Assembly (NCBI GenBank): GCA_030611015.1
Contig: JAUWQP010000002.1
Location: 1-43,136 of the forward strand
Source: Chloroflexota bacterium
GTDB taxonomy: Bacteria; Chloroflexota; Dehalococcoidia; GIF9; AB-539-J10
Length of the DNA: 43,136 nucleotides
Reading direction: 5' to 3'
Shown: positions 1,868 to 39,897 of the stretch, piece by piece
How positions within the stretch are numbered: the first letter of the stretch is position 1
Layout: each line of letters starts with the position of its first letter
Program-made: the position numbers and the translations under genes
The notes under the pieces: model-generated
Database searches by the model: none
The model's input: the letters and a program-made list of their open reading frames with translations, nothing else
Told to the model about the DNA's origin: nothing

Positions 1868-3109
1868 TCAACCCTGGGGAAAGAACATCCGCTGCCCGAG
1901 CTCCTCAATATCCTGGTCAGTTTTGATGGCTTTCTTCGTTCGCTGCTTTCTGGCTTCCCTCTCTTCGGCGCTTTTACCTGGGGGAAGTGCTGCCGAGCCG
2001 AGTGCTTCCTTAATATCCCTTCTCATCCCGGGAAGCTCTGTTTTGAGGAAATCCATGCCCCCAGTGGCAATTTCGTGAATGATGTCCATCTCAGTTCGGC
2101 CGGTACTTCCCTTCTGCAGGTCTGAGATTGTACCCAGCGTTTGCTTAAGAACATTGGATAGGTCCTGGATTTGCCTCTGCTGGCCGGCAAATTGTTCTCG
2201 ATATCTCTCCTCTTTCATCTCATTCAGGGATTGGCGCATTTCAGTCAGTGCTTCCTTCATTGCGCTGTCGCCCTCAGTCCCACCGGTGATCTTTCTTATC
2301 GCTTCAACAAAGGCAACTGGGTCTGTCATCCACGCGGGCTGAGCGCTGGCTCCAGCTCCAATGCCAAGCCCCTCTCGGAGAGTTTTCCAGGTTTCCGCGG
2401 CTCTGGTCATTGCCGTAATAGGGTCAACGGGTTCACCTTGCTGCTGTGCTTGTTGCATGAACTGAACGGCCATGAGCTCCACTCCAGAGACCCTGGCCTT
2501 GGGGTTTAGTATCCAGTGTCCTTCTCCATCCTGCATGAAGGGTGATTCGGTCCCTGCCTTTTCATCTTCTTCTGCCATTTTCTTTAACTCCTTTGCCTGG
2601 GCTAGTGTTCCTCCCCTCTCATCTTTCTTTGCCATTCGGACTTGGCGCGACTCAGGCTCATAGATGTACCTCACCTCAGCAGCTCCTTTTGGCTCCGCTT
2701 CTTCCTTCTGAATTTGCTCCGTTGTCATTCCTGCCTTTAGTTGGACCTCGGGGGAAATGGCTATACCCTTTTCGGCAAACCACTGCTCAATTATAAGCTT
2801 TCGTTTGGACGGGGTGATATCACTGCTCCAGGCAGTCATGCGTTTGAAGAGAAGATCAGGATCTTCAAAGACGCTGGGTCCACCAGTATGAGAGATATTC
2901 TCAGCGATATTGGCTGCCAGGTCACCTTTTATCTTGAACTTCCGGAGCAGAATGGCAAAGTCCTCCTCAACGATGGGGACTTCCCTGGCCGGGCCCTCGG
3001 TCTCCACAAATTCGGGATGTTTACTTCTGATATGGCTCTTTAACGCTGACGCTTTCTGAAACTCTTTTTCGCTATCCTCACATCCGGGTACAGGGCATTT
3101 TAACGCCAT
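1868..3109 (-). CDS. 413-aa protein with an N-terminal C2H2-like zinc finger and a long E/K/Q-rich helical region
   Basis: AAGGAGGTG SD upstream of the ATG at 3109. The N-terminus CPVPGC...HIRSKH has C-x4-C...H-x4-H spacing. The rest has charged coiled-coil-like composition. Confidence 0.65.
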   Translation of the reverse strand: MALKCPVPGCEDSEKEFQKASALKSHIRSKHPEFVETEGPAREVPIVEEDFAILLRKFKIKGDLAANIAENISHTGGPSVFEDPDLLFKRMTAWSSDITPSKRKLIIEQWFAEKGIAISPEVQLKAGMTTEQIQKEEAEPKGAAEVRYIYEPESRQVRMAKKDERGGTLAQAKELKKMAEEDEKAGTESPFMQDGEGHWILNPKARVSGVELMAVQFMQQAQQQGEPVDPITAMTRAAETWKTLREGLGIGAGASAQPAWMTDPVAFVEAIRKITGGTEGDSAMKEALTEMRQSLNEMKEERYREQFAGQQRQIQDLSNVLKQTLGTISDLQKGSTGRTEMDIIHEIATGGMDFLKTELPGMRRDIKEALGSAALPPGKSAEEREARKQRTKKAIKTDQDIEELGQRMFFPQG

Positions 3110-3509: not shown

Positions 3510-3608
3510 AACACCCCCCTCTTTTAGAGTTACCGAAATTATAGCACCCTTTACGACAAACCACAAGAGGGGGGACTAGAAAAAAGCGACAAAGCCTCGG
3601 TGGGGGCA

Positions 3609-3637
3609 TTGACGGAGGGCTGACAACATGCTATTAT
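3609..3637 (+). promoter_or_regulatory. sigma70-like promoter TTGACG-17-TATTAT, 7 nt before the ATG at 3645 (leaderless arrangement)
   Basis: -35 at 3609-3614, 17-nt spacer, -10 at 3632-3637. There is no SD before the ATG. Confidence 0.55.
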
Positions 3638-3644
3638 AGGCAGA

Positions 3645-4526
3645 ATGAAGACGATAGCGGTGACCGCGTTGAAAGGGGGAGTGGGGAAAAGCTCTATAGT
3701 TGCTGGCTTAGGTTTAGCCCTCGTCAGCAAGGGCTATAAGGTTGGCTTCCTTGACCTGGATGTGACTGGCTCCAATCTCTATTCAGCACTTGGGCTTGCT
3801 CATTCACCGAAGTTCGGCCTTGATAGCGTGAATGAAAAGATAGTCGTGCCTGAGGTAGATGGTTACTGGCTTCTATCTATTGCTTCATATACCGGGGAGG
3901 ACTATGCCGTGCTGTGGGAGAGTGATCAGCACAAGGAGCTAAGCCAGATTAGGGACACCATGGAGACGGCTGACCTGAAAGCATTGAAAAAGCAGATTGA
4001 CGATATTCTGGCTTCCAGTAAATGGCGCTTTGTCGAAGAGTTACTTTCCCCAGATATAGTTACCTGGCCAGAGCCACTTGACTTTCTTATAGCTGATTTA
4101 CCCCCGAGTATTAGCCACGAGATGTTCTCCTTCTTTGACCAGGTCAAAGACCTCTTTGGTGTGTTTATCGTTTCCCAGCCATCAGCTATCTCAAACACCG
4201 GTTTACAGCGAACCATAGACTTATTGCGAGTCCAACAGATTCCTATCATCGGCTTGGTAGGTAATCAGGACGGCTTCCTCTGTAAGCACGGTGAGATAGA
4301 ATATCAATTCTTATCGCCCCGAGTTGACCTCAAAGAGATTGCCAGAAAAGCAGGGATACCCTTCCTGGCTTCAATACCTCAGACAGGAGACACCAATAAA
4401 ATAAAGCCCTATTTCTCGGAGCTAGCTGATAAAGTTGTCAGCTCGAAGCCGGTGGTCCTGAAAGATATCACCCTGGGCAAAAGACTTAAGAGGAAAATAG
4501 TAAAAGGAATAGCCAGGAGGCTGTAG
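3645..4526 (+). CDS. Mrp/NBP35/ApbC-like (ParA/MinD superfamily) P-loop ATPase
   Basis: Deviant Walker A ALKGGVGKSS near the N-terminus and a DLD Walker A' region. GLVGNQDGFLCKHGEIEYQFL aligns with the Mrp ENMS..C..C..F region, with CxxC degenerated to CKHG. Confidence 0.8.
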   Translation: MKTIAVTALKGGVGKSSIVAGLGLALVSKGYKVGFLDLDVTGSNLYSALGLAHSPKFGLDSVNEKIVVPEVDGYWLLSIASYTGEDYAVLWESDQHKELSQIRDTMETADLKALKKQIDDILASSKWRFVEELLSPDIVTWPEPLDFLIADLPPSISHEMFSFFDQVKDLFGVFIVSQPSAISNTGLQRTIDLLRVQQIPIIGLVGNQDGFLCKHGEIEYQFLSPRVDLKEIARKAGIPFLASIPQTGDTNKIKPYFSELADKVVSSKPVVLKDITLGKRLKRKIVKGIARRL

Positions 4527-4970
4527 ATGGCAGGATTGATTGAGCAAATGTTTCGCCGCTTTATGGCACGGCAGGCACACTTCTTTGATAGTCTATCCAA
4601 GGAGGCCAAAAGTAAGCTAGCTGAGGTCGAGAGCAAGTACGCTGAATTGCGAGTAACCGGTCCTGAAGGAGGCGTCCTATATTTTCAATACAAGGGGCAG
4701 CGTCTCCAAATACTTGACCAGGCTCCGCCAGTGCCCTATGAGAAACTGGATAAATTCTTAGTAGATGGTGATTTGGTGAACTATCCCAGTGGCGATGAGG
4801 TGCTCCTTGATGTTATTGATGGCAGCCTTTCCCCCAGGGCAGCAATCAGCAGGAAATACTTCCGGGCTAACACCGATAAGATAATATACGACACTGAAGA
4901 ATTCGCGCAAGCTTTCGAGCAGTTCCTCTCTGAGATGCGAATGATATTGGGAGGGCGAAGTGCTGGCTGA
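4527..4970 (+). CDS. hypothetical protein (147 aa), weak SCP2-like resemblance
   Basis: The ATG abuts the upstream TAG. IDGSLSPRAAISRKYFRANTDKII loosely recalls the C-terminal SCP2 lipid-carrier motif. The functional idea has low confidence. Confidence 0.5.
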   Translation: MAGLIEQMFRRFMARQAHFFDSLSKEAKSKLAEVESKYAELRVTGPEGGVLYFQYKGQRLQILDQAPPVPYEKLDKFLVDGDLVNYPSGDEVLLDVIDGSLSPRAAISRKYFRANTDKIIYDTEEFAQAFEQFLSEMRMILGGRSAG

Positions 4971-5604
4971 GGCGCCCTTTGCTCTCCTGATTGCCGGGGC
5001 AGCCCTATTAGGGCTATATCTGGCAAATATTTTTTATGACTACGACATTCCCCAGTACCTTTCTCGCAAATTAGGCCACTTAGGAGGGTGCGTCGGTTTC
5101 TTGTTATGCCCACTACTATTCAGCACTTTTTGGTGGCCACTAATCCTGACTACAGGATTCACTGCTCTACTCCTTTATGCCAGGTTCTTTAAACCAGATA
5201 CTTTTCGGGGAGTAGGCGGTTCTGGTAGGCCGCAGGCACTGGCTGAGATACACTTCCCGGCAACAGGAATTGTCCTCATTGGTATATGCTGGGGGTTATT
5301 AGATAAGCCTTGGCTAGCGATTGTTCCCCTTCTATATATGGGAGGAGGAGACGCAATAACTGGAATCATTCGAAGCAAGGTATATGGCAGAGAGGTCAAG
5401 GGTAACTGGGGTAGCCTGGGGATGCTTATCACCTGCCTAATTCTCGCCTACTTTGTCCAGCCTTATTGGATTGGTGTGGTTGGAGCTACTACTGCAGTGA
5501 TAGCCGAGAAATATACCAAAACAACAAAATACATAGACGACAACCTGACTATACCCCTAGCTAGTGCCATCGTGATGGTAGTTTTACACATTTACTTTGT
5601 TTAA
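4960..5604 (+). CDS. polytopic membrane protein, CTP-dependent polyprenol (dolichol/phytol) kinase / CdsA-CarS superfamily-like
   Basis: About 6 hydrophobic segments. GGGDAITGIIRSKVYG-x6-NWGSLG resembles the GD.A..G...G...W.GS signature of that superfamily. The GTG start overlaps the upstream stop. Confidence 0.6.
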   Translation: MLAEAPFALLIAGAALLGLYLANIFYDYDIPQYLSRKLGHLGGCVGFLLCPLLFSTFWWPLILTTGFTALLLYARFFKPDTFRGVGGSGRPQALAEIHFPATGIVLIGICWGLLDKPWLAIVPLLYMGGGDAITGIIRSKVYGREVKGNWGSLGMLITCLILAYFVQPYWIGVVGATTAVIAEKYTKTTKYIDDNLTIPLASAIVMVVLHIYFV

Positions 5605-5615
5605 GGAGGTCGAAA

Positions 5616-6548
5616 ATGAAAGCCAAACTTAAAGCACATCTCTGGACATCAGGAAGGTGGTTTGCCCTCCCCTTCTTTTGTGGGTCCGCCTTAATCGGCT
5701 CTTTACTCGCCGGTGGCACTCTTGGTGAACTCAATACTTGGCTTGGTTTCACAGCAGTAGCCCTATTTATGGCTTGTGGCCACTCCCAAAACAGTTACAT
5801 TGATTGGGCTTTTGGCCTTGATGAGCCTGAGGGAGGGGGTAGCGTTGAAAAAGGCTATACCGGGGGTTGTGGTATCCTCAAGATTCTCAGTGCTAAGGAG
5901 CTTATTCTAAACTTCGTTGGCTGGGGGGTCGCCGGCTTAATTGTATGTGCAGTAGTAGCCTCAAGAGTTACTCCCTATATCTTTATCCCTGCTGCTTTGG
6001 GGTTAGCAGTTCCCTACTTTTACACTAGAGGTAAGTTTTCCTGGTATCATGAGTTGGCACTGGCCTCTGGAGTGGTACTAGCTGGAATTACCGGTATGTT
6101 TGCTGTTAATCCTCACCCTGATTGGTGGCAGGCAATTATAGTAGTGTTGCCAGTAGCAGTTGTCCTCTCCTATCTCGGGCTGGCTTTTGATGAATACTTG
6201 GATGCGCATAGTAACCTCAAAAGGGGTGTTAAAAGCCTGGCCTATAAGGTGTGGCAGTACCACTTTGACCTTTCACTCTACATTCTCGCCTGGCTGGTTA
6301 TCATCTATGTCTTCCAAGTATTTCTAATAAATATTGGCTTGCTTAAGCCAATGACTATGTTGAGCCTGATTTGTTTCCCGCCCCTACTGGCCACTCTTGT
6401 CTTTCTAAAACCATACGCTGATTCTATCAGGGAAAATCCAACGGACAAAGCTGCTCAGGATGGGTTTAACCGCATCGGTAAGCTGTTTGTGCTGGTGGCA
6501 ATGTTTTATCCTGTGTTATTACTTGTAGGCCAAGCTGTAGGAGGCTAA
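5616..6548 (+). CDS. UbiA-superfamily prenyltransferase (divergent)
   Basis: 8-9 predicted TM helices. It has two Asp-rich motifs, QNSYIDWAFGLD (N-x3-D-x5-D) and FDEYLDAHSNLKRGVKSLA (D-x3-D...G.KS). GGAGG SD. Confidence 0.65.
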   Translation: MKAKLKAHLWTSGRWFALPFFCGSALIGSLLAGGTLGELNTWLGFTAVALFMACGHSQNSYIDWAFGLDEPEGGGSVEKGYTGGCGILKILSAKELILNFVGWGVAGLIVCAVVASRVTPYIFIPAALGLAVPYFYTRGKFSWYHELALASGVVLAGITGMFAVNPHPDWWQAIIVVLPVAVVLSYLGLAFDEYLDAHSNLKRGVKSLAYKVWQYHFDLSLYILAWLVIIYVFQVFLINIGLLKPMTMLSLICFPPLLATLVFLKPYADSIRENPTDKAAQDGFNRIGKLFVLVAMFYPVLLLVGQAVGG

Positions 6549-6549
6549 C

Positions 6550-7476
6550 ATGACGGTACTCGTAACTGGAGCATCAGGCTTTGTCGGTTCGGCTCTTATC
6601 CCTCTCTTGATAGAAAAGGGACATTGTGTGTTAGGGCTTTCGCGGCATCCCCCTATTGGCTCAAGAGACCTCATCCCCATCGTCGGTGATGTAATCGAGC
6701 CTAACCTCGGATTGAAGGATGTCCCCCAGGATATTGAGACTATCTATCACCTAGCAGGAATCCACGCTCTTAAACAGGAGGACAAGGACGGCTTGATATG
6801 GAAAACTAACGTGGATGGCACAAGGAATGTCCTCAAGTTCTGTCTTAAACACGATATCCCCAAGCTGATTTTTATTTCGACAGCCTACACCTGGCCGGTT
6901 AATCCCTATGGGTTAAGCAAAATCAGAAATGAGGAAGATATCCTTGCCTTTTGCGAGAAACACGGCCTCAAGGCAACCATCCTCAAGCCGTCAATAGTTA
7001 TGGGAACAGCTGAACATCCCTACCCAGGGCACTTCTCTCGGTTCATATCAGCGGTAATACAGACTCACCGCAGGGCGGAGCTTATCCGGAGAAAGATTGA
7101 GGGTTCACTGCGCCTGCCGGTAATCGAGCCTTTGTTTCGTATTAAGGGTAACCCGGAAGGTAAACTTAACCTCATTCAGATTGGCCAGGTGGCCTGGGGT
7201 ATAGCCAACATTGAGGAAGCCGGCACTTTCTGGCTGACCCACCCTGACCCCCCGACTCTGCAGCAACTAGCCGACTGGGTTGGCGAACTCATCATGGTCA
7301 GGATGAAGTTCGAGCCGGAGTTTAAGCCGACCCCCATTGAGGCAGCATTCCAGAAGATGACTGCTGCCTTTGCCCCTTATCTTCAGGGTGATAATTTCCC
7401 CAGCAACCTGCAGCTCTCCCCCCCAATCAACAAGAGCTTCATCCAGGAGACTGCCAAGAAAACTGTCCTTGACTAA
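6550..7476 (+). CDS. NAD(P)-dependent epimerase/dehydratase (extended SDR)
   Basis: N-terminal VTGASGFVGS Rossmann motif and the catalytic YGLSK (YxxxK). Starts 1 nt after the upstream stop. Confidence 0.85.
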   Translation: MTVLVTGASGFVGSALIPLLIEKGHCVLGLSRHPPIGSRDLIPIVGDVIEPNLGLKDVPQDIETIYHLAGIHALKQEDKDGLIWKTNVDGTRNVLKFCLKHDIPKLIFISTAYTWPVNPYGLSKIRNEEDILAFCEKHGLKATILKPSIVMGTAEHPYPGHFSRFISAVIQTHRRAELIRRKIEGSLRLPVIEPLFRIKGNPEGKLNLIQIGQVAWGIANIEEAGTFWLTHPDPPTLQQLADWVGELIMVRMKFEPEFKPTPIEAAFQKMTAAFAPYLQGDNFPSNLQLSPPINKSFIQETAKKTVLD

Positions 7477-7516
7477 ATTCCCTCTCGGGTTTAGAATTTT
7501 ATTAAGGAGGTACATC

Positions 7517-9874: not shown

Positions 9875-9881
9875 AGTGCTT
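9857..9881. repeat. left copy of the direct repeat flanking the endonuclease gene (TGGTTTTGGAAAAAATGAAGTGCTT)
   Basis: About 21 of 25 positions match 10764-10787, with one 1-nt indel. It spans the stop of 8888..9874 and the start of 9876..10781. Confidence 0.6.
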
Positions 9882-10781
9882 ATTGAGATATTGCCAAGGA
9901 TAATTGAACTCTACTTTAAACAGGAATATTCAATTAAACAAGTAGCGATAACTTTAGGCACTTCTGAAACCTCCACACAACGTATTCTTAAAAAAGCAGG
10001 TTATAAGCTAAGAAGTCCTAGTGAAGCTACGAAGTTAGCCTTTAATAAAGGAAGAGCTATCCGTAATCATAGCCCCAAGACATTAGAGCATAAGAGAAAG
10101 CTATCTGTAGCACAAACCCAATACTTATTTGAACACGACCATCAATTTCTAGGCAGGCATCATAGTACAGCAACAAAAACAAAATTAAAGAGGCGGCAGG
10201 TATCCCTTGAAACTAGAGTTAAATTAAGTGCTAGTTGTAAAGATAGGCCAAGTTCTATGCTCGGTAAGCACCACTCAGAAGAATCTAAAACCAAAATGAG
10301 CCAGACTAGGAAGAAGATGTATGAAAATCCAACATTTAGAGCTGAGATGCTAAAAGTTTTGAAGGAGTGGAGTTCTCGCCCAGAGGTAATTGAAAAACGC
10401 AAACTTGCCATGGCTAGGCGTGTCAGAGATCCTATAGAACTAAGCAAGATGCTGAGTAGCCGGAGGCCAACGGATTTAGAAGCAAAATTGCTTGCTGTAA
10501 TAGAGAAATACCACTTACCCTATAAATATACTGGTGATGGAAGCTTTCTTATTGGCAGACTGAATCCTGATTTTGTTAATACCAACAGTGAGAAGATAGC
10601 CATTGAGGTTTTTGGGGGACACTGGCATCAGGATAAAACTGACTCTATACGAAGTGAGGATGGTAGAAGGAAGATTTTAAGGGAATACGGATGGGAACTT
10701 GTTGTTATCTGGGGTGATGAACTAAAATCAATGCTAGAAGAGGCAATAGTTGAGAAAATAAGGTGGCCTTGGAAAAAGTGA
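9876..10781 (+). CDS. free-standing homing-endonuclease-like protein (HTH + NUMOD3 repeats + Vsr/DUF559-like PD-(D/E)xK domain)
   Basis: Repeated GRHHS..TK.K / GKHHSEESKTKMS NUMOD3-type motifs. The C-terminus NPDF...IAIEVFGGHWH...ELVVIW resembles Vsr/DUF559 nuclease folds. Confidence 0.65.
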   Translation: MLIEILPRIIELYFKQEYSIKQVAITLGTSETSTQRILKKAGYKLRSPSEATKLAFNKGRAIRNHSPKTLEHKRKLSVAQTQYLFEHDHQFLGRHHSTATKTKLKRRQVSLETRVKLSASCKDRPSSMLGKHHSEESKTKMSQTRKKMYENPTFRAEMLKVLKEWSSRPEVIEKRKLAMARRVRDPIELSKMLSSRRPTDLEAKLLAVIEKYHLPYKYTGDGSFLIGRLNPDFVNTNSEKIAIEVFGGHWHQDKTDSIRSEDGRRKILREYGWELVVIWGDELKSMLEEAIVEKIRWPWKK

Positions 10782-14106: not shown

Positions 14107-14222
14107 TGCCTAGACGTGCTACTAGAACCAGTTTTAGGAAAGGACAGCCTAGTGCTTTTAAAGGTAGGCGCCATAAAGTGAAATTACCGATAAAATACGG
14201 CAGTTCTTTAGGAGGTGATTAA
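14106..14222 (+). CDS. possible 38-aa highly basic peptide (VPRRATRTSFRKGQPSAFKGRRHKVKL...)
   Basis: GTG overlaps the upstream TAG (TAGTG) with AAGGAG 9 nt upstream. Below the ORF-track size cut-off, so speculative. Confidence 0.25.
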   Translation: MPRRATRTSFRKGQPSAFKGRRHKVKLPIKYGSSLGGD

Positions 14223-16038
14223 AATTCCCGTTACTCTAGCGCTTGCGGATTTCGATTTGCCTACCAGATCGGCCAGCGGCTTCTGCTTAAGATACATCGC
14301 TCCCAGAGTTGAGCCATTCCAGCTTTTTGGTATGCTGGTGCGTCGGTTACCGTTCCAGCTGACAGCCCCCCAATCAGACATAATCATTGGGGTTGGCCAT
14401 GGTAGCGAGTGCTACTCCGAGGATACTGAAATCTTAACAGATAATGGCTGGAAACTATTCCCCGAACTTAGTGCTAATGAGCGAGTTGCTACTCTTAACC
14501 CAGAAACAAACGGGTTAGAATACCAAACAATAAAAAGGCAATTTAAGTATCCTTATAAAGGAAAAATGTTTTATCAAAACGGTGCTGTAGATTTGCTCGT
14601 TACACCTAACCACAATCTCTACTGTAGTTGGATGGTGCATGATGGCAAATATAGACCTTTTACCTTAATAAAGCCAGAGGATTTAGACAATGGTCTCGCC
14701 AGAAGCCCAGAAAATGGTCAATTTATATCTACAGGTAAAACCAAGTCAAGGCTGAAGTACAAAAGAGATGCAAAATGGTTTGGGGAAGATAGAGAATTCT
14801 TTATTCTGCCATCCGTTCAGCGCATCTTCGTAAACCAATCCGGTAAATGTGGCTCAAGGGAAATAGAAGCTAAAAGAATATTAATGGATAATTTCTTACG
14901 GTTCTTTGGTATTTGGTTAGCTGAAGGTTGCACATCCCTTGGCAAAGGTAGAAGAAAACGCAAGAACGGGAATATCGGCAGCTACCTATTTTATAGAGTT
15001 ACTATTGCCCAAAACAACGACCAAAAAAGAACATTGATAAAAGGGTGGCTTAAGCCAATAGCCGAAGAGGTCGGTTTTAAGTTCTGGGAACATAAAAACA
15101 AACATTCCCAAGGTTTTGAATTTAGGAATAAACAGCTATTCCAGTATTTAAGACAATTCGGGAAAGCTAAAAAGAAATACATGCCAAAAGATATAAAAGC
15201 CCTGTGCCCAAGGCAGTTGAAGATATTACTTGATGCTATGATAGTTGGAGATGGTTCTGGTAAAACCTATTCTACCTCATCAAAAAAGCTTGCAGATGAT
15301 GTTCAAGAGATAGCATTAAAAATAGGTTACGCTGCCTCTGTATATAAAAGCCCTGTGCCCCATAGTGGTTATTCTCCGTATAGCGAAATGTATCTCGTTA
15401 ATATTTGTGATGGTCCCCAAAGAGAACCTCTGTGTATGAAGAGCAAAAGGGGCTATGTTGATTATGAAGGCTATGTTTATTCAGTAGAAGTTCCTGAATA
15501 CCATACCTTATATGTGAGGAGGAATGGCAAACCTTGTTGGAGTGGCAATTCAACTTTTACCGGGCAAAATGAGGCAGTAATCCTTGAGGTAGGCAAGTAC
15601 GACCCCAAAGAAGTCAAAGGCAAGGTAATAAAACTACTATCATGCCAGACTGGAGTGGAGCTGGGACCTGACTTAATTAAGAATGGGGCAGCTAGCTTCG
15701 CTGGTTACACTGATGATTTTGTGTGGGTCTGTGATTCCGATTTGGCTTCAACGCCATGGGCTGATAAGGAGTTTGCCGGCAAGTGCTTAATGCCTGTTAT
15801 CGATGGGTTGAATGCCCTTCTTGATGGCAAGACAGCCAGGGAGGCATTTGCTATAGAATTAAATGGCTATTCGAGAAACGCCGAGGAGGAGGAGGATGAG
15901 CTGGTAAAAGCCTGTCTTGAGTTTAATCGAGATAACGCCGTGCTGCTGGGTGATGGAGGTGCTTCTATAAAAGCCAGGCCAGCTTTGGCCTTGCCATTCA
16001 AGCTCATTCCTCCGCCGCCAATAGTAATACCCTATTAG
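14215..16038 (+). CDS. intein-containing precursor; the spliced host protein (about 227 aa) is clan-CD (gingipain/caspase-like) cysteine-peptidase-like
   Basis: Extein junction GVGHGSE|C...SGN|STFTGQ, then LLSCQTG 35 residues after the His. This His-Gly...Ser-Cys spacing matches C25-type peptidases. The start codon is uncertain because GTG 14215 abuts the SD. Confidence 0.75.
   Translation: MIKIPVTLALADFDLPTRSASGFCLRYIAPRVEPFQLFGMLVRRLPFQLTAPQSDIIIGVGHGSECYSEDTEILTDNGWKLFPELSANERVATLNPETNGLEYQTIKRQFKYPYKGKMFYQNGAVDLLVTPNHNLYCSWMVHDGKYRPFTLIKPEDLDNGLARSPENGQFISTGKTKSRLKYKRDAKWFGEDREFFILPSVQRIFVNQSGKCGSREIEAKRILMDNFLRFFGIWLAEGCTSLGKGRRKRKNGNIGSYLFYRVTIAQNNDQKRTLIKGWLKPIAEEVGFKFWEHKNKHSQGFEFRNKQLFQYLRQFGKAKKKYMPKDIKALCPRQLKILLDAMIVGDGSGKTYSTSSKKLADDVQEIALKIGYAASVYKSPVPHSGYSPYSEMYLVNICDGPQREPLCMKSKRGYVDYEGYVYSVEVPEYHTLYVRRNGKPCWSGNSTFTGQNEAVILEVGKYDPKEVKGKVIKLLSCQTGVELGPDLIKNGAASFAGYTDDFVWVCDSDLASTPWADKEFAGKCLMPVIDGLNALLDGKTAREAFAIELNGYSRNAEEEEDELVKACLEFNRDNAVLLGDGGASIKARPALALPFKLIPPPPIVIPY
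14410..15549 (+). mobile_element. 380-aa intein with a LAGLIDADG homing endonuclease domain
   Basis: Block A is CYSEDTEILTDNGW. There are two LAGLIDADG motifs (FFGIWLAEGC and LLDAMIVGDGSG). The C-terminal block is VYSVEVPEYHTLYV..NGKPCWSGN followed by +1 Ser. The penultimate residue is Gly rather than His. Confidence 0.85.
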
Positions 16039-17686: not shown

Positions 17687-17738
17687 TGCCAGTGGGTGCT
17701 TTAGCATCTGCTGAGACCTAACATAGGAGGTGTTAGAG

Positions 17739-18650
17739 ATGGGAGCAGGATTTAGATGGGTTAAATTTATCTACGCGTGGTGCAAGGCTTTTAGCACACA
17801 AATTCTGGGGGCCATCAAGGCTAGCGTAATGGGAGGGGGTACCACCTACTTCGTTGAAGGTAATACCGGCCTCGACACCAACAACGGTCTCACCCGGGAG
17901 GCGCCGTTACTGACGATAGCCCACGCCCTGGATCTGTGCGTAGCCGGTAACGACGACACTATCATCGTTCTGGACCACTACCAGGAGACCTTCCCAATCA
18001 CTGTAAGCAAGGCGAAGGTACATATCATCGGGGTCAATGTAGGTCAGCCAATGGTATGGTTAACCGCTGCCCTCGATACCGCCATCTTCGAAATTGAAGC
18101 GGATAACGTCGAGATTGCGGGCTTTGAGTTCGGTGCTGGAGCAACCCATGCCGCAATCGAGTTTACCGATCTTGTCACCGAAAGGGGTTACGGCCGTATT
18201 CATGACTGTGCATTCGGATGGATGCAGGCGGGGCAGGATGGAATTAGGGTGCCAGCGACCGCCGACGCTGCGGAGACCATCATCGAGAAGTGCTTCTTTG
18301 GTAATAACCTGACTCGTGATGGCATCCGCATCGAGCATAACATGACCCGTGGGATAATTCAGAATAACATCTTCCGTTCAGTGACGGGTGTAGGCATCAA
18401 TGTTCTGGGGCAGATGGCTTTGGGGATTCTCAAAGGCAACAAGTTCAAGCTTCCTGCGAACAACGCCGGAGGAGCTATCACACTGAGTGCAGCAGCCGAC
18501 GTCGCTGGTGAAATATATATTGTGGACAACGATGCTAACTTTGGGAATACCACTATGGTTGCGATACCATGGGTGGTAACTGGTGGGTCTACCATCGGTT
18601 GCACATGGGATAACAATAGGCGAGATGGTGCGGTAGTTTCGCCAGCGTAA
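17739..18650 (+). CDS. right-handed parallel beta-helix protein (pectate-lyase-fold; spike/depolymerase-like)
   Basis: ATG behind AGGAGG. The N-terminal cap motif is YFVEGNTGLDTNNGLTREAPLLTIAHAL. Repeated NN.F/GN.F-type PbH1-like turns are present (NNIFRSVTGVGINV, GNKFKL, DNDANFGN). Confidence 0.65.
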   Translation: MGAGFRWVKFIYAWCKAFSTQILGAIKASVMGGGTTYFVEGNTGLDTNNGLTREAPLLTIAHALDLCVAGNDDTIIVLDHYQETFPITVSKAKVHIIGVNVGQPMVWLTAALDTAIFEIEADNVEIAGFEFGAGATHAAIEFTDLVTERGYGRIHDCAFGWMQAGQDGIRVPATADAAETIIEKCFFGNNLTRDGIRIEHNMTRGIIQNNIFRSVTGVGINVLGQMALGILKGNKFKLPANNAGGAITLSAAADVAGEIYIVDNDANFGNTTMVAIPWVVTGGSTIGCTWDNNRRDGAVVSPA

Positions 18651-21564: not shown

Positions 21565-21950
21565 CCGTGAGAGTGATTAGAGAAAACCTGGTAGGCTTAT
21601 TCAAGTTCCTATTCATTCTCCTAGGTATTCTGTTCCCATTCAGGCTAAAAAGGGAGAGACCATCACAGACACGATACAGAAAAGAAACTAGCAGGGAAGA
21701 GCCTGTTAATCATAAATATGCTAGCTTCATTGGCCCCAGTGAGCCTCTCATCCCGACTGAACCCTGCTTCTGCCCTAAATGCCATGTGCTTGTGGCTTCT
21801 TTGAGGCGCACCAAAGAGGGTATCAAGATAATTCAGAATAATAGGGTGCTTGTTACTGTAGGGGGCAACTTTACGACTAGCGAGGGAGGAAAGGTTAGGA
21901 CGGGCTTCCCAATGAAATGCCCTAACGGGCACACGGTGGAGGTGCAATAG
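21558..21950 (+). CDS. membrane-anchored zinc-ribbon protein
   Basis: N-terminal hydrophobic helix (LVGLFKFLFILLGILFPF), then CFCPKCH...CPNGH. The GTG start is uncertain. Confidence 0.45.
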   Translation: MLTVRVIRENLVGLFKFLFILLGILFPFRLKRERPSQTRYRKETSREEPVNHKYASFIGPSEPLIPTEPCFCPKCHVLVASLRRTKEGIKIIQNNRVLVTVGGNFTTSEGGKVRTGFPMKCPNGHTVEVQ

Positions 21951-23776
21951 TGGCTTGGATTAAGGAACTTGGACTATTCCAGACGGCTACTGCCATTGTA
22001 TTGTCTAATGATACCCCGGCAATAGTGAGGGCTCTAGCTAGGGTAGCTAAGGTGGCTCTTGGTGCCCTGATACAAGTGTGTGATGAAGTCGCTGACCAAG
22101 TTGAAATAAATGCCGCCATTAATGCCTTGCCTGTCTATGCAGGTAAAAGACATGGCAGGATTGTTTTCGTAGGTGGAATGTTCCGCACTTCTGATACTAT
22201 CAACGTTGATGGTGACATTACCCTTGAAGGGCAGATGATGCCTATACCTACTTATGACTCGGGAACTACCATACGGAATGAGAACATAGCCGGGGCAGAT
22301 GCCTTTCACCTCTTGGCTCCTGGTGGCTTTCCTGACCACGTGATAAAAGTTGTCCTCAGGAATATGTGTATTAGAGGCAATGCTGCCTCTGGGCACGGAG
22401 TATATGCTGATAAGGTTCACTTCACCCTCTATAACATAGTGCTTTTGTCTCATGGTGGAGATGGAATATATGTAGAGGCTTGCTGGGGTGGGAGTATTAT
22501 AGAGAGTGACATCAGAAATAACGAGGGTGCTGGAGTTTCTTATAATAGGGATGCTGTTACTGGGCATACCTGTACCTGGCAGCTCATAGACCACTGTAAT
22601 ATCGGCCATAACCACACAAATGCTGACATCTACATGCCTGACTACACAGCGGAGCTGATAGTCCGAGCCTGTTACTTTGAGCATGGTGATGACATTGGTG
22701 CGATACACCACATAGAGATAGGTGGAGGCTCGAATGTTACAATATGTGATGGCTGCCGGCTCGCTGCCAATTACAATATTGCCGCTACTCCTATCCATAT
22801 TAGTAACGGTGGCCGTGTCAGGATTACGGATAACTTTATAGGTGGCGATGCAGCCAGGTGCATAGAAATAGCCATTGGAGTATCTACTGACATTATCGGG
22901 AACGACTTTATTGCGGGCTGGACAGAGTGGTGTATCCACTGTTCTGTCACTGGCGGCTCGGTGCTGATTGATGATAACTACTTCCCTCTTGACCAGGACA
23001 CATACCCTGATTGCATCATAGCAAGGCTTGTGGCTGATAACGCAATCTTCACTAATAATAGGGCAATAGCCACAGGTACAGGCAACAACAGGACTGCGGT
23101 GCACCTCATCAATGTTGACAACTGCGTTGTAAGTGATAATATCCTCCTTGGTCCATTCGATAATACCTGGATACGACTGGATCCTGGGAATTACTGCACA
23201 TTAGAAGGTAACACTATTGAGGGTGCCAGTGGACTAGGCATCTACTTGGCCTCAACAAGTTCTTACAACACAGTAGTAGGCGATATCTGCCGTGGCAACA
23301 ACATCGGGATTGAGCTGGGTGCAGACTCACATCATAACACAGCAAAGAGCAATAGCTGTCCGAACAATGCTACAGTAGGGATTAGTAACAATGGTACGGA
23401 TAACATAACTGATGTAGCTGCCCACTCAATTGCCCTTGACCTCTCTGGAGGAGCAACGGACATAGAGGTCTACCATGCCAAGGTAGCATGCTCCTTCTTT
23501 GGCTACGAGATACTCTATACTGAGGCATCTTCTGTCAATGCTGGTGTCAATGTGAGGATAGGCAGGTATCAGGATGGGGTAGCCTTAGATGATGATTATT
23601 TTGATGTTTCTGTTTCTGAGGTCAGTAAGAACAAGGGCTACTCAAAGCAGTTCGATCGTGCTGATTTGACCCAATCAGTGATTGCTGCTGGAGACACAAT
23701 AACAGCTGGTATTGCTGGTGGGAAGGTAGGTACTGGTGAGGTATTACTCATCCTACAGATAGCGGAGACGGGGTGA
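21950..23776 (+). CDS. large right-handed beta-helix repeat protein (608 aa; receptor-binding/depolymerase-like)
   Basis: GTG overlaps the upstream TAG, with GGAGGTG 6 nt upstream. Many PbH1-like repeats are present (IRGNAASGHGVYAD, NNEGAGVSY, GNTIEGASGLGIYL, GNNIGIEL, NNATVGISNNG). Confidence 0.75.
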   Translation: MAWIKELGLFQTATAIVLSNDTPAIVRALARVAKVALGALIQVCDEVADQVEINAAINALPVYAGKRHGRIVFVGGMFRTSDTINVDGDITLEGQMMPIPTYDSGTTIRNENIAGADAFHLLAPGGFPDHVIKVVLRNMCIRGNAASGHGVYADKVHFTLYNIVLLSHGGDGIYVEACWGGSIIESDIRNNEGAGVSYNRDAVTGHTCTWQLIDHCNIGHNHTNADIYMPDYTAELIVRACYFEHGDDIGAIHHIEIGGGSNVTICDGCRLAANYNIAATPIHISNGGRVRITDNFIGGDAARCIEIAIGVSTDIIGNDFIAGWTEWCIHCSVTGGSVLIDDNYFPLDQDTYPDCIIARLVADNAIFTNNRAIATGTGNNRTAVHLINVDNCVVSDNILLGPFDNTWIRLDPGNYCTLEGNTIEGASGLGIYLASTSSYNTVVGDICRGNNIGIELGADSHHNTAKSNSCPNNATVGISNNGTDNITDVAAHSIALDLSGGATDIEVYHAKVACSFFGYEILYTEASSVNAGVNVRIGRYQDGVALDDDYFDVSVSEVSKNKGYSKQFDRADLTQSVIAAGDTITAGIAGGKVGTGEVLLILQIAETG

Positions 23777-28393: not shown

Positions 28394-28873
28394 CTACCCC
28401 CTTTCCTCCGGGCGCTGATACGGCAATCCCAGTGCCTTATATATTGATTCCTCAGTGTCGCCGGCGATCCTCTCCCCATTCTCATTAAAGAGGCCTTCAC
28501 CCGAAGCAGCCAAGTGCCAGCCTTTCTTCTTGGCCAAGCTACATAGGCGAATATTCGACTCTTTACTCCCAGTCCTAATGAGGAGCAGTGTTGCCCAAGT
28601 CCCAGGTGAAGCGAAATACAAGTCAACTTGGGCGCCGTTGTAATCGAACCGCTTCAGCTTCTCACCACTCAGCTTGGGCTGGAAGGGACGGGCCAGAGCT
28701 AGCACCTCGCTCTCCAGGTTCCAGGGATCAGAGGGGATAAGGACGATATCAATATCTCCAATAGAAGCCTTTTGCCTCCGAATAGAGCCGGCCACCTCAA
28801 TTTTCTGGCAGTAAGGTTTAAGCCTAGCAACAACCTCATTTGCTATTTCTACTGCTTGTTCCAGTCGCATCAT
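28394..28873 (-). CDS. minimal family-X DNA polymerase / Pol-beta-like nucleotidyltransferase (159 aa, palm + thumb only)
   Basis: GSIRRQKASIGDIDIVLI (GS.RRGK...GD.D motif), a third acidic site at VDLYF, then LLIRTGSKESNIRL and EESIYKALGLPYQRPEER (PolX thumb, ...PE.R end). Confidence 0.75.
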   Translation of the reverse strand: MMRLEQAVEIANEVVARLKPYCQKIEVAGSIRRQKASIGDIDIVLIPSDPWNLESEVLALARPFQPKLSGEKLKRFDYNGAQVDLYFASPGTWATLLLIRTGSKESNIRLCSLAKKKGWHLAASGEGLFNENGERIAGDTEESIYKALGLPYQRPEERG

Positions 28874-29484
28874 ATTAGCCTCCGTTGTTCCTCTGAAAAT
28901 CTTTGCTGTAAGCCAGTTACCGGGATACCCCGCTCATTCAGAACCTTCATCTTTTGCCAATAAGCCAAATCCTCCTCTGGTATCTGGGTTTTTAAATGCC
29001 CCAGGAATCTACCATGCTCATCATGCAAAGCTGTACCTGGAATCAGCCGCCTATCGTGCTTATTTTCATAAAATTCCAGTAAAAGCTCAGCTTGCTCTCT
29101 TTTCAGCACTAAGTGTGGAAGACAATTCTTGAGGATAACTAATATAATGGGCCAAGCTACAGCCTGCCACCTATAAATCACTTTCCTTCTTCCTCCCCTC
29201 GTTGTTCTCACTATAGAGCTGTGAGCAATCCTTGTATTGAGATAGTCGACCAACCTATATTGGGTATTGCTTACTAAAATATAAGGGTTCAGAGACTTTG
29301 TATTATCTCTCTTATCACTGACGAGGCTTAAGCCGATTGTTCCTTCAGAATCTATAACCCCAGCAACATAAGCCCATGTAGTATCCTCAACGAGAGCTTG
29401 AGTCAGTTCGGCTTCAATAAGTCGTTCCTTGTGAGCCTCATGCGGATTTTGGGTGGCTATTTTCCGTGCTATTTCCAGTTTCAA
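28870..29484 (-). CDS. free-standing single-motif LAGLIDADG homing endonuclease
   Basis: WAYVAGVIDSEGTIGL motif. ATGA overlaps on both sides. Confidence 0.7.
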   Translation of the reverse strand: MKLEIARKIATQNPHEAHKERLIEAELTQALVEDTTWAYVAGVIDSEGTIGLSLVSDKRDNTKSLNPYILVSNTQYRLVDYLNTRIAHSSIVRTTRGGRRKVIYRWQAVAWPIILVILKNCLPHLVLKREQAELLLEFYENKHDRRLIPGTALHDEHGRFLGHLKTQIPEEDLAYWQKMKVLNERGIPVTGLQQRFSEEQRRLI

Positions 29485-39036: not shown

Positions 39037-39897
39037 TCATTGTTCTGCCTCGGAACGGGGCAACCATAAAGGATCGCTCATAGCAAAGAGTTTAATCCTC
39101 TCCTGTTTATAGAACTCGAAGGGTAATTGCCCCTTATCCTCCGGTGTTCTTAAATCTATCTCCCGCAAAGGCTTGAATGACCTATGTAGGTATTGGGTAT
39201 AGGCAGACGTTGTTTCACTGCCATGTCTTATTGTATCGTCAACTAGAATAGCATCTGCCCACTCATCGGAGTTAGCATAGACCTCCTGCCATTCCTTTTT
39301 GCCATGATAAGGGCAGCCTATACAGGAGCTTTTAGCGACAGACATCCCCTCATAGTTATCATGTAGCCATTTTATACAGTCATTTCTTGACATCATGCGT
39401 TCTACTAATGGGTATCGTTTCCCTAACCACTTGCTATGGGATAACGACATACGCTGAGCCTCATCAATACTAATGCCAATCCACATTTCTACTGCCCCTT
39501 CCTTTATCCTTGCTCGCCTTGATACATCAAGTAATTCACGAATCTTATGGAAGATGGGCTGTAGTTTATACCTGTCTGTGCACTGACGTTTACCCATCAA
39601 ATGTTTACCACCCTTATCCATGTAAAGAGGCATGAGATAGTAGCCCTTGTTTAACTCAGCAGCGTTCAAGCTATCATCCCTGATATTCCTCTCCTGAACG
39701 ATTATCACGGGGATGCCATGCTGTTCTGCCTCAACCTTTAACCACGCAAGATGCTTATATGTAGCCTTGCTCTCCCATCCCGTGTCGGCAAAGATAGCTA
39801 CATCAGGCTGGGGTAATTCCCCCTTGATAGCCATAAGTAGTATTGTCGTAGACTGGACACCAGCTCCTAATGATAATACTGTCAGCCTATTCACCAT
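39037..39897 (-). CDS. PAPS-reductase-family (PP-loop ATP pyrophosphatase) protein, phage type
   Basis: The N-terminus LSLGAGVQSTTILLMA...AIFADTGWE is the phage PAPS-reductase-like signature (SGG.DS-type PP-loop variant). Confidence 0.75.
   Translation of the reverse strand: MVNRLTVLSLGAGVQSTTILLMAIKGELPQPDVAIFADTGWESKATYKHLAWLKVEAEQHGIPVIIVQERNIRDDSLNAAELNKGYYLMPLYMDKGGKHLMGKRQCTDRYKLQPIFHKIRELLDVSRRARIKEGAVEMWIGISIDEAQRMSLSHSKWLGKRYPLVERMMSRNDCIKWLHDNYEGMSVAKSSCIGCPYHGKKEWQEVYANSDEWADAILVDDTIRHGSETTSAYTQYLHRSFKPLREIDLRTPEDKGQLPFEFYKQERIKLFAMSDPLWLPRSEAEQ
39040..39058. repeat. family-B palindrome copy 4 (degenerate; TTGTTC-tgcctcg-GAACGG)
   Basis: The 16 nt at 39042-39057 are identical to 36225-36240. 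It encodes the C-terminus RSEAEQ of 39037..39897. Confidence 0.65.

Follow-up and report, generated by a model that had tools for sequence, protein, structure and literature searches.

A virus-borne five-gene cassette predicted to encode an isoprenoid-lipid pathway in Dehalococcoidia

A conserved five-gene operon carried by virus-like elements may install a membrane-associated isoprenoid-lipid pathway in infected Dehalococcoidia, with a prenylated phenolic or quinone-like lipid as its product; from the sequence comparisons we put the probability of this reading at about one half. If it is true, the prenylated lipid would change the membrane or the redox physiology of the infected host. The operon occupies positions 3645-7476 on the + strand of the window (the whole stretch of DNA analysed, 43,136 nt) and consists of five tightly packed ORFs, listed here with two promoter-like sites:

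3605-3637, + strand: sigma-70-like promoter-like element GGCA-TTGACG-17 nt-TG-TATTAT (hexamers 3609-3637)
3645-4526, + strand: Mrp/NBP35-family P-loop ATPase, 293 aa
4527-4970, + strand: soluble SCP2-fold protein, 147 aa
4960-5604, + strand: PKL, a polytopic membrane protein and remote member of the polyprenol (phytol/dolichol) kinase family, 214 aa
5616-6548, + strand: divergent MenA-like UbiA-superfamily prenyltransferase, 310 aa
6550-7476, + strand: extended SDR of a new subfamily, 308 aa
7469-7497, + strand: second promoter-like site TTGACT-17 nt-TAGAAT, overlapping the SDR stop codon and starting the next transcription unit

The ORFs lie where a preliminary description had placed them, and their coordinates, junctions and promoter-like site agree with the co-transcribed architecture under a single leaderless-type promoter that it proposed. 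Successive genes are spaced by +0, -11 (an overlap), +11 and +1 nt, the 214-aa gene starts with GTG, and the operon-internal genes are translationally coupled. A strong Shine-Dalgarno sequence (AGGAGG or GGGAGGG) stands 4-6 nt 5' of each of genes 2-5. None is present upstream of gene 1, the ATG of which lies 7 nt past the end of the -10 hexamer in a leaderless geometry. Promoter-like sites are not in excess in the region (4 found against 5.1 expected by chance). Three other lineages (L024, L009 and L001) also have a GGCATTGAC...TAtAAT element 5' of their orthologous gene, and in two of these the spacing is leaderless. Downstream of the second promoter-like site are AAGGAGG and then an ATG at about 7514; since this site and Shine-Dalgarno sequence open the next gene, the operon is a discrete unit. 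Every one of the five proteins has a large conserved metagenomic family, and the ORFs are therefore regarded as real genes.

The prenyltransferase can be assigned at the level of the UbiA superfamily, as first proposed, through PF01040, which is matched by 16 of 19 family members (best 1.9e-17); the window's copy itself matches no Pfam model. The protein has about 8-9 TM segments and the invariant Asp-rich motifs N59-x3-D63-x5-D69 and D192-E-x2-D196, the first of which aligns without gaps to E. coli MenA and keeps the MenA spacing. The best NCBIfam matches of the family are MenA models, far below cut-off, the family profile has no PDB match, and hhalign comparisons with E. coli MenA and UbiA give probabilities of 0.7% and 5%. 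Judged by these profiles, the viral protein is remote from every characterised subfamily.

PKL has at least 5 TM segments and the family invariants D131, E183 and D194. It has no direct Pfam, NCBIfam or PDB match, no structural match was found for its model, and PF01148 is touched by just 1 of 70 family members. A viral-clade profile searched against 1.8e9 proteins does find proteins named as phytol kinase, dolichol kinase and diacylglycerol/polyprenol kinase family members (E 1e-14 to 4e-7), and a DUF92/VTE6 gene adjoins one distant PKL member. Kinase activity for PKL would be an extrapolation from these relatives. Of the CdsA/dolichol-kinase-like character originally suggested, the polyprenol-kinase link is retained, through remote profile hits only, and the CdsA part is dropped, as no profile gives a CarS or CdsA signal.

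The preliminary description had also compared this pair of genes to the CarS and DGGGP-synthase steps of ether-lipid synthesis. Such a pair, or one prenylating a glycerol-type acceptor, could supply an ether or other membrane lipid for a membrane virion or a replication compartment. DGGGP-synthase models are indeed touched weakly by 2-3 of the 19 UbiA relatives (E 7e-4 to about 1e-3), and the cassette stands at the head of a long array of unrecognisable genes that are possibly structural. However, the remote relatives of PKL are polyprenol kinases, GGGP synthase was not found, Dehalococcoidia MAGs, sigma-70-like promoters and Shine-Dalgarno sites all point to a bacterial host, weak tail-fibre/baseplate-like PHROG hits of one window protein hint at a tailed virion, and the PKS and ACP genes of related cassettes (see below) better fit phenolic lipids. 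The ether-lipid analogy therefore finds little place here, and we consider it very unlikely.

The extended SDR was correctly recognised from the start, with direct profile matches to PF01370 (3e-25), NAD_binding_4 (1.2e-17), HpnA (5e-17) and a thioester-reductase domain (2.4e-13). Its invariants, taken from the alignment, include TGASGFVGS and the catalytic Y120-x3-K124. PDB matches are confined to residues 1-115, and the C-terminal, substrate-binding half has no known match. Could the cassette instead make a sugar donor? PKL would then provide polyprenyl-P, an Rv3806c-like UbiA protein would add phosphoribose, the SDR would epimerise the product, and the remodelled envelope glycan would block superinfection. 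The SDR does match the Pfam family "epimerase" and numerous structures of NDP-sugar epimerases, the monophosphate expected from a polyprenol kinase is what DPPR synthase uses as acceptor, and a second kinase is absent from the cassette. Yet the likeness to sugar enzymes is limited to the generic Rossmann half, decaprenyl-phosphate phosphoribosyltransferase (DPPR-synthase) models are matched by 0 of 19 UbiA relatives, with MenA models the best, and no cassette variant contains a glycosyltransferase, flippase or PAP2 phosphatase. Type III PKS, ACP and the SCP2/UbiJ-like protein would also be left without a role. The Rv3806c/DprE2 analogy is abandoned on these grounds, and a sugar-donor function is quite unlikely.

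The 147-aa gene was given no assignment in the preliminary description. An AF2 model of its product (pLDDT 70) was compared with the PDB using Foldseek, and nearly all of the top ~28 matches are proteins with the SCP2 fold or domains resembling SCP2, the best being UbiJ-SCP2 (6h6p, E 7.9e-4, prob 1.0). Pfam SCP2 scores E 0.15 against the sequence, and a close homologue (P0442) bears the UniRef name "SCP2 domain-containing". On the modelled fold, the protein is a putative carrier of a hydrophobic or isoprenoid lipid.

The decisive new evidence on cassette chemistry is the co-occurrence of PKS and ACP genes in sister cassettes. At least 8 of about 13 cassette variants (L007, L008, L009, L011, L024, L037, L038 and L040) include a type III PKS (Pfam Chal_sti_synt_N/C; best PDB match Pks11, 3e-28), and an ACP is encoded in those of L001-3 and L040; gene order is variable among these loci. 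An ACP-linked supply of starters for the PKS is plausible. This co-occurrence suggests that the product is a prenylated lipid of phenolic or quinone-like type and, together with the SCP2/UbiJ-like fold, redirects the predicted chemistry toward such lipids. Neither PKS nor ACP is encoded in the window, so the argument for an aromatic acceptor leans on relatives in the case of its own cassette.

Profiles place the first gene product directly in the Mrp family, as originally proposed (PF10609 9.4e-34, 117 bits; MrpORP 1.2e-30), with a deviant Walker A motif (KGGVGKS), a Walker B motif and no TM segment. In the alignment, only L024 keeps an intact CxxC Fe-S motif; most lineages have lost it, as has the window, where the motif is degenerate (FLCKHG). 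A basic C-terminal tail, KRLKRKIVKGIARRL in the window, is conserved.

The analysis establishes the anatomy of the genes, their family placements, the synteny, the paralogous pair in the host and the co-occurrence with PKS and ACP; from these we infer every step of the pathway. Free polyprenol would be phosphorylated by PKL to salvage a prenyl donor, the MenA-like UbiA protein would prenylate an aromatic head group, and the SCP2/UbiJ-like protein would hold the hydrophobic intermediate for redox tailoring, or thioester reduction, by the extended SDR. The probable role of the Mrp/MinD-type ATPase, with its Fe-S ligands lost and its basic tail, is to organise or energise this complex at the membrane. 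The type III PKS, sometimes with ACP, would make the phenolic head group within the cassette in most of the sister viruses; the window's five-gene version lacks the PKS and would therefore have to draw its acceptor from the host.

Syntenic copies of the cassette occur on virus-like contigs of 45-85 kb, among them five IMG/VR UViGs; the contigs of 78-85 kb carry many ORFans together with RusA, UvrD and PD-(D/E)XK genes. The window also encodes a D5 primase-helicase (1094 phage hits) and HNH and homing endonucleases. These features uphold the viral or mobile-element context first described, and the absence of PKL or UbiA homologues from 50,697 phage genomes agrees with its view that the combination is not known as a phage module. 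Genes for capsid, portal or terminase were not recognised, so the label "virus" rests on the IMG/VR classification and on replication and accessory genes. The carriers, viruses or virus-like elements of 45-85 kb, form an uncultivated lineage. Its contigs are binned mostly with Dehalococcoidia MAGs (10 of 16 GTDB hits), and from binning and homology the host is most likely sediment Dehalococcoidia. That the window represents two separate contigs in one ENA assembly, with virion hallmark genes unrecognised, might suggest a host island or chimeric assembly. This is highly improbable, since independent JGI, ENA, Logan, NCBI and IMG/VR assemblies repeat this cassette together with its flanks, on contigs up to 85 kb, and the cellular copies form a distinct clade with other flanks.

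In Dehalococcoidia chromosomes only an adjacent PKL-UbiA pair is present, about 47% and 42% identical to the window's proteins, among housekeeping neighbours (FtsZ, FtsA, MraW, TrmD and PriA genes); conservation across these loci is limited to the pair. Host housekeeping homologues and flanks, or unsupported motifs, had been named beforehand as grounds for rejecting a viral module, and the nearest non-viral homologues are indeed this host pair, although identities this low speak for an ancient capture of host genes and against mis-assembly. The virus probably took the pair from its host and then added three genes of its own. A simpler role would be to boost the host pathway by duplicating this pair, the Mrp, SCP2 and SDR genes being unrelated neighbours, for example in ParA-type plasmid-prophage partition; the Mrp-like protein does match the PHROG "ParA-like partition protein" family (1.7e-14). 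We regard this as unlikely, because PF10609 scores far better than ParA-type models, no ParB gene follows, the internal genes are translationally coupled, and all five remain linked at identities of 28% to 90%, although gene order has been shuffled and UbiA alleles replaced.

How does the proposed prenylated-lipid pathway compare with known systems? The likeness to gtrABC drawn in the preliminary description is conceptual only (phage-borne genes and a polyprenyl-lipid-linked process) and has no component support: the cassette lacks the GtrA flippase, the GtrB GT2 glycosyltransferase and a GtrC homologue, with no sign of lysogeny or a glycan target. With Mrp/ApbC/NBP35 Fe-S carriers and MinD-type membrane ATPases, the viral ATPase shares PF10609 and the Walker motifs, but the cluster-bridging CxxC of the carriers is missing in the window protein; by analogy, we infer that its basic tail resembles the MinD membrane-targeting helix. 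UbiJ and UbiT are SCP2-domain lipid carriers of the Ubi metabolon in ubiquinone biosynthesis. The 147-aa model is closest to the UbiJ SCP2 domain and its gene shares an operon with a UbiA-family prenyltransferase, although TM-scores are only 0.4-0.5, sequence similarity is negligible and the cassette has no quinone-pathway hydroxylases or methyltransferases.

UbiA enzymes normally use diphosphate donors. In phytol salvage, VTE5 phytol kinase and VTE6 phytyl-P kinase precede VTE2 or MenA on the way to tocopherol and phylloquinone (PMC9965820). The viral pairing of a polyprenol-kinase-family protein with a MenA-like UbiA protein, and the DUF92/VTE6 neighbour of the distant PKL relative, recall this route, but the viral cassette has no VTE6-like second kinase, its PKL and UbiA proteins are too divergent for curated models, and it is virus-borne in anaerobic Dehalococcoidia. 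In actinobacteria, type III PKS genes co-cluster with UbiA-family prenyltransferases (PMC7587189), and polyketide quinones are known from mycobacteria and Streptomyces (PMC9927152). The pairing of PKS and membrane prenyltransferase in actinobacterial phenolic-lipid clusters recurs in the PKS-bearing sister cassettes, though not in the window's own. The methyltransferase and monooxygenase found in the agq and pkq clusters have no counterpart in the viral cassettes, which add PKL, SCP2, SDR and Mrp genes in the setting of a virus rather than a bacterial chromosome.

The five open reading frames of the cassette were recovered at exactly the coordinates of the preliminary description, all on the + strand, and are bracketed by two promoter-like sites.

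3609-3637, + strand: promoter-like site TTGACG-17-(TG)TATTAT, in the sole sizeable upstream intergenic gap
3645-4526, + strand: gene 1, Mrp/NBP35-type ATPase
4527-4970, + strand: gene 2, 147-aa protein (hereafter p147)
4960-5604, + strand: gene 3, 214-aa membrane protein of remote polyprenol-kinase type (hereafter PKL), with a GTG start
5616-6548, + strand: gene 4, 310-aa UbiA-family protein
6550-7476, + strand: gene 5, 308-aa short-chain dehydrogenase/reductase (SDR)
7469-7497, + strand: second promoter-like site, followed by AAGGAGG-ATG and opening the next gene

The junctions between these genes measure 0, -11, +11 and +1 nt, and in each of genes 2-5 an AGGAGG or GGGAGGG sequence sits 4-6 nt 5′ of the start codon. 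No Shine-Dalgarno sequence is present 5′ of gene 1, where the end of the -10 hexamer and the ATG are 7 nt apart. There are 4 promoter-like sites where 5.1 are expected, no excess over chance. The extended element GGCATTGAC...TAtAAT also precedes the orthologous gene in three related loci (L024, L009, and L001), the first two with leaderless spacing, and is replaced in other lineages by a terminator hairpin and a Shine-Dalgarno sequence. As the second promoter-like site opens the following gene, the cassette is a discrete operon. The extended -35 element itself, GGCATTGAC (window 3605-3613), occurs 24 times in the window at ≤1 mismatch (9.35 expected; 0 of 100 shuffles reached 24), and most copies are intragenic, on both strands.

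PKL is far more conserved than its neighbors; between the window and L024 identity is 72% for PKL, 40% for the Mrp-like ATPase, 35% for p147, 25% for UbiA and 38% for the SDR. It has no match in Pfam, NCBIfam, PHROG or the PDB, single-sequence and profile searches against PDB sequences returned nothing meaningful, and Foldseek gave nothing below E = 1 for its AlphaFold model (pLDDT 72), so that the kinase fold is a prediction. An exhaustive profile search of 1.84 billion representatives gave only 241 relatives. The profile of the viral clade reaches proteins named phytol kinase (6e-14, 1e-8) and dolichol kinase (4e-7), with “diacylglycerol/polyprenol kinase family protein” among the PGAP names of its matches, all of these names being annotations rather than assays. 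The gene for a distant member, P0388, lies directly upstream of, and adjacent to, a DUF92/VTE6-family gene (PF01940). Residues D131, E183, and D194 are invariant in the family, and R36 and N195 nearly so. The family HMM PF01148 (CTP_transf_1) matches neither the window PKL nor 69 of 70 broad-family members, the remaining one scoring 2.5e-6. By its homology to annotated members and the DUF92/VTE6 association of a distant member, PKL is a remote clade of the polyprenol-kinase family (COG0170) and a predicted kinase. Of the earlier “CdsA/dolichol-kinase-like” assignment the second half thus stands, and an identity with CdsA or CarS is rejected for want of any Pfam or NCBIfam match and any sequence or fold match in the PDB library, in which CdsA and CarS structures are presumably represented. 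On one cellular contig (L030, 6001-7456) a distant PKL-family gene extends into the start of a DUF92/VTE6-family gene, the two forming a bacterial kinase pair similar to VTE5-VTE6 of plants.

The UbiA protein of the window does not match PF01040 at E ≤ 1. The model is matched by 16 of its 19 close relatives (best 1.9e-17) and by a host paralog in the cellular locus L015 (48.6 bits, cut-off 34.2), and the window copy is therefore assigned to the family by homology. Two Asp-rich motifs, N59-x3-D63-x5-D69 and D192-E-x2-D196, are invariant in the 19 sequences and accompany ~8-9 hydrophobic segments, the arrangement typical of the superfamily. Single-sequence and profile searches against PDB sequences again gave nothing meaningful. 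The best NCBIfam models for the relatives are of MenA type (11 of 19, best E 2e-13, far below cut-off); the window copy has no NCBIfam MenA match and the MenA equivalog cut-off is not reached. Motif 1 aligns gap-free with E. coli MenA (NDYGDAVKGSDKPD) and needs a gap against E. coli UbiA, in hhalign alignments of such low probability (0.7% and 5%, respectively) that they were used for motif spacing only.

Two pathway analogies proposed earlier for this enzyme fall away. The DPPR-synthase model (decaprenyl-phosphate phosphoribosyltransferase, Rv3806c type) is absent among the 14 NCBIfam families matched by the 19 relatives, and membership of that family is rejected. The DGGGP-synthase and chlorophyll-synthase models are marginal, the former being matched by 2+1 of 19 relatives at E ~7e-4, and no GGGPS or CarS gene occurs in any cassette; DGGGPS membership is likewise rejected, and with it the comparison to the CarS and DGGGP-synthase steps. 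The same gaps bear on the idea that the operon makes ether lipids or lipids for a virion membrane, which would have to operate without CarS and GGGPS and in a host whose signal is bacterial, and which is quite improbable.

Gene 5 is an extended SDR: it matches PF01370 at 3e-25 (89.5 bits, cut-off 20.9), and TGASGFVGS and the Y120-x3-K124 pair (Y120, K124) are invariant. The “epimerase/dehydratase” part of its first description is a family label only, because every PDB and NCBIfam alignment ends at about residue 115-175, after the Rossmann half, and because lipid-acting relatives (HpnA, thioester reductase/MxaA, OleD, NSDHL) score equal to sugar epimerases. Similarity to NDP-sugar epimerases or dehydratases across the C-terminal substrate-binding domain was not found. 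That label, with a monophosphate logic, is what would fit a polyprenyl-phosphate-sugar product; such a product is nevertheless unlikely, since the operon has no glycosyltransferase, no flippase and no similarity to DPPR synthase, and since the polyketide synthase (PKS), acyl carrier protein (ACP) and SCP2 genes described below would be left unexplained. Nor does any of the five proteins match GtrA (flippase), GtrB (bactoprenol glucosyltransferase) or GtrC, and the suggested analogy to gtrABC-type lysogenic conversion is abandoned.

p147 had no assignment in the preliminary description. Its family is 72-93% conserved, and one member is labeled “SCP2 domain-containing”. The sequence match to SCP2 (PF02036) is sub-threshold (E 0.15, 12.8 bits, cut-off 21.3), and a PDB search with the family profile retrieves no SCP2 entry. 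The AlphaFold model (pLDDT 70) gives about 28 top Foldseek matches in the PDB that are almost all SCP2-fold proteins or SCP2-like domains, most at probability 0.95-1.0. The best is the SCP2 domain of UbiJ, with E 7.9e-4, probability 1.0 and TM-scores of 0.43/0.51 for a model of this pLDDT. As modeled, p147 thus has the alpha/beta SCP2 fold, with the caveats of pLDDT 70 and TM-scores of 0.4-0.5. UbiJ is a lipid carrier of ubiquinone biosynthesis, and SCP2 proteins such as UbiJ and UbiT chaperone prenylated quinone intermediates.

Gene 1 belongs to the Mrp/ApbC/NBP35 ATPases, matching PF10609 at 9.4e-34 (117.4 bits, cut-off 27.1) and MrpORP at 1.2e-30, with a deviant Walker A motif, KGGVGKS, of which KGGVGK is invariant among viral orthologs. 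The conserved CxxC motif for cluster binding is missing in the window protein, which has a single Cys at this position (FLCKHG, C-K-H-G); in the alignment of viral orthologs this Fe-S cluster-bridging motif is kept only in L024, the most divergent lineage, as CPSC. A basic tail (…KRLKRKIVKGIARRL) is conserved among the viral orthologs. From these sequence features the protein has probably lost the Fe-S carrier role, and the tail is predicted to be a membrane tether. ParA-type partition was rejected as its main role, given the much higher score of the Mrp model and the lack of a ParB gene downstream.

Sister cassettes carry additional genes. A type III PKS is found in eight loci (L007, L008, L009, L011, L024/L039, L037, L038, and L040), recognized by Pfam Chal_sti_synt_N/C. 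In the PDB it is closest to M. tuberculosis Pks11 (3.3e-28), and THN synthase (1U0M) is matched as well. An ACP (PP-binding, 1.2e-17) occurs in L001-3 and L040, in the latter next to the PKS gene. Two positions are seen for the PKS, one between UbiA and the SDR and the other between PKL and UbiA. The linkage of the genes thus survives rearrangement and speaks for a functional module. The window itself lacks both PKS and ACP. Further inserts (L023 6232-6747, L008 1887-2444, L024 10627-11424) are an amidase of the C92 permuted-papain type, an HTH regulator, and an ORF that is Zn-ribbon or endonuclease-like. The amidase is YiiX-like, and the annotation of YiiX in E. coli is putative lipid-binding hydrolase.

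What, then, could such an operon make? Head groups of alkylresorcinol, pyrone or naphthalene type are products of type III PKSs. These enzymes also yield polyketide quinones, which serve as alternative electron carriers (PMC9927152), and in actinobacteria they cluster with UbiA-like prenyltransferases, according to a passage of PMC7587189 that cites the Actinoplanes agq cluster. A known coupling of polyprenol kinase and UbiA is phytol salvage, in which VTE5 and then VTE6 yield phytyl-PP for aromatic prenylation by VTE2 or a MenA-type enzyme (PMC9965820). On the precedents of phytol salvage, SCP2 carriers and type III PKS/UbiA clusters, the operon may direct synthesis of a prenylated phenolic or quinone-like lipid in the host membrane, a reading by analogy to which we give a probability of about 0.5. 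The PKS-less operon of the window would use a host-derived acceptor. The cassette holds no second kinase for making the diphosphate.

A tblastn map separated the loci into two classes. Viral-type loci (PKL 54-88% identical) carry Mrp, p147, PKL, UbiA, and SDR, and cellular-type loci (PKL 47-50%, UbiA 37-43%) only an adjacent PKL-UbiA pair. In L015 the pair is flanked by FtsZ-FtsA-MraW-TrmD on one side and by a two-component system, PriA and a CCA-adding enzyme on the other; across the cellular loci compared, conservation is limited to the pair itself. In neighbor-joining trees nearly all viral PKLs form one clade, sister to the cellular clade. The UbiA tree is a mosaic in which several viral types surround the cellular clade, and UbiA alleles of at least four types (25-90% identity) have replaced one another across lineages. 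Most simply, a host gene pair would have been captured long ago, with exchange of UbiA alleles afterwards. A simple boost of a host pathway, with neighboring genes of unrelated function, is weakened by the persistent linkage of all five genes and is rather unlikely.

The surroundings of the operon in the window include the following features.

1868-3109, - strand: divergently transcribed 413-aa protein with an N-terminal C2H2-like zinc finger, seen by eye in the translation
9876-10781: ORF with weak homing-endonuclease PHROG matches (E 7e-4 to 4e-3)
14215-16038, + strand: 607-aa ORF with a LAGLIDADG domain (PF14528) at residues 350-385
17730-18650, + strand: right-handed beta-helix protein (Beta_helix/NosD) with weak PHROG baseplate-wedge and tail-fiber matches
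21950-23776, + strand: right-handed beta-helix protein (Beta_helix/NosD)
28870-29484: HNH endonuclease
31012-33312, - strand: PrimPol/D5-type primase-helicase (phrog_864, 6e-88; 1094 phage matches), in the leftward replication module
39037-39897, - strand: PAPS-reductase-like protein (phrog_424, 9e-43), in the leftward replication module
41999-43075, + strand: DctP-type TRAP solute-binding protein (PF03480, 4e-33; PHROG of unknown function, 5e-12)

The cassette and the same divergent upstream genes recur on 78-85 kb ORFan-rich contigs with RusA, UvrD, and PD-(D/E)XK genes, and five IMG/VR UViGs of 45-85 kb also carry the cassette. Ten of 16 matches in GTDB genomes fall in Dehalococcoidia or Dehalococcoidales MAGs. 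Host paralogs exist, yet the cassette is neither a host island nor a mis-assembly, the outcomes the preliminary description had named as fatal to its proposal, and an assembly artefact is very improbable. The 413-aa protein has a weak BAR-domain Pfam match (E 0.0015, below cut-off), and an ORF of similar size (376-447 aa) occupies its position beside the cassette in L001, L004, L025, and L034.

Among 30 window ORFs compared with PHROGs none was recognized as a capsid, portal or terminase gene, and a further 10 tested downstream on the + strand had no PHROG match; the baseplate-wedge and tail-fiber matches of the 17730-18650 protein are the only virion-type hint. A 499-aa ORF of L004 resembles a GHKL ATPase and not a terminase, and a 385-aa ORF has no phage match. 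The N-terminus of the 607-aa ORF matches PHROGs annotated as thymidylate synthase and ribonucleotide reductase, which are probably intein splice-region matches; as L001 has only ORFs of ~100 aa at the syntenic position, a large intein inside a small virion-module protein is suggested. The DctP gene, at the right window edge with the contig ending just beyond in the source assembly, could be a viral auxiliary gene or host flank and is not demonstrable as a host junction. No tRNA genes and no terminal or att-like repeats were found in the window, and megablast of the region against phage genomes gave no match.

The impression that this is not a described phage module was borne out: no PKL or UbiA homolog occurs in 50,697 GenBank phage records, and literature searches on Dehalococcoidia viruses with UbiA, phage type III PKS auxiliary metabolic genes, and Dehalococcoides prenyltransferase or quinone biosynthesis returned nothing relevant. 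Should the product be a prenylated phenolic or quinone-like lipid, viruses would be interfering with the membrane redox carriers or envelope lipids of energy-starved anaerobes. In marine and subsurface sediments the likely hosts count among the bacteria that are most abundant and least tractable. More tentatively, it is possible that a whole lineage of uncultivated subsurface-Dehalococcoidia viruses encodes a self-contained pathway to a novel prenylated polyketide quinone or phenolic lipid that rewires membrane electron transport or the envelope. In it the ACP and type III PKS would supply the head group, and the polyprenol kinase and MenA-like prenyltransferase the tail, alongside the SCP2 carrier, the SDR and a membrane ATPase. 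Such a pathway would be the first virus-encoded biosynthesis of a quinone-like or meroterpenoid lipid, and would reveal the function of the uncharacterized Dehalococcoidia PKL-UbiA pair.

The cassette points to that unstudied host pair, a new polyprenol-kinase clade with a new MenA-like UbiA clade, and defines a new extended-SDR subfamily and an Mrp-derived ATPase without Fe-S ligands. Metabolic genes of viruses mostly encode lone enzymes that reinforce a pathway of the host; here, a putative membrane-lipid pathway of 5-7 genes is conserved throughout a deep viral lineage whose members share 25-90% protein identity. The superfamily of every enzyme, and virus-borne metabolic modules as a concept, are already known; what is new relative to them is the unusual, proposed multi-gene lipid pathway and several new sub-families.
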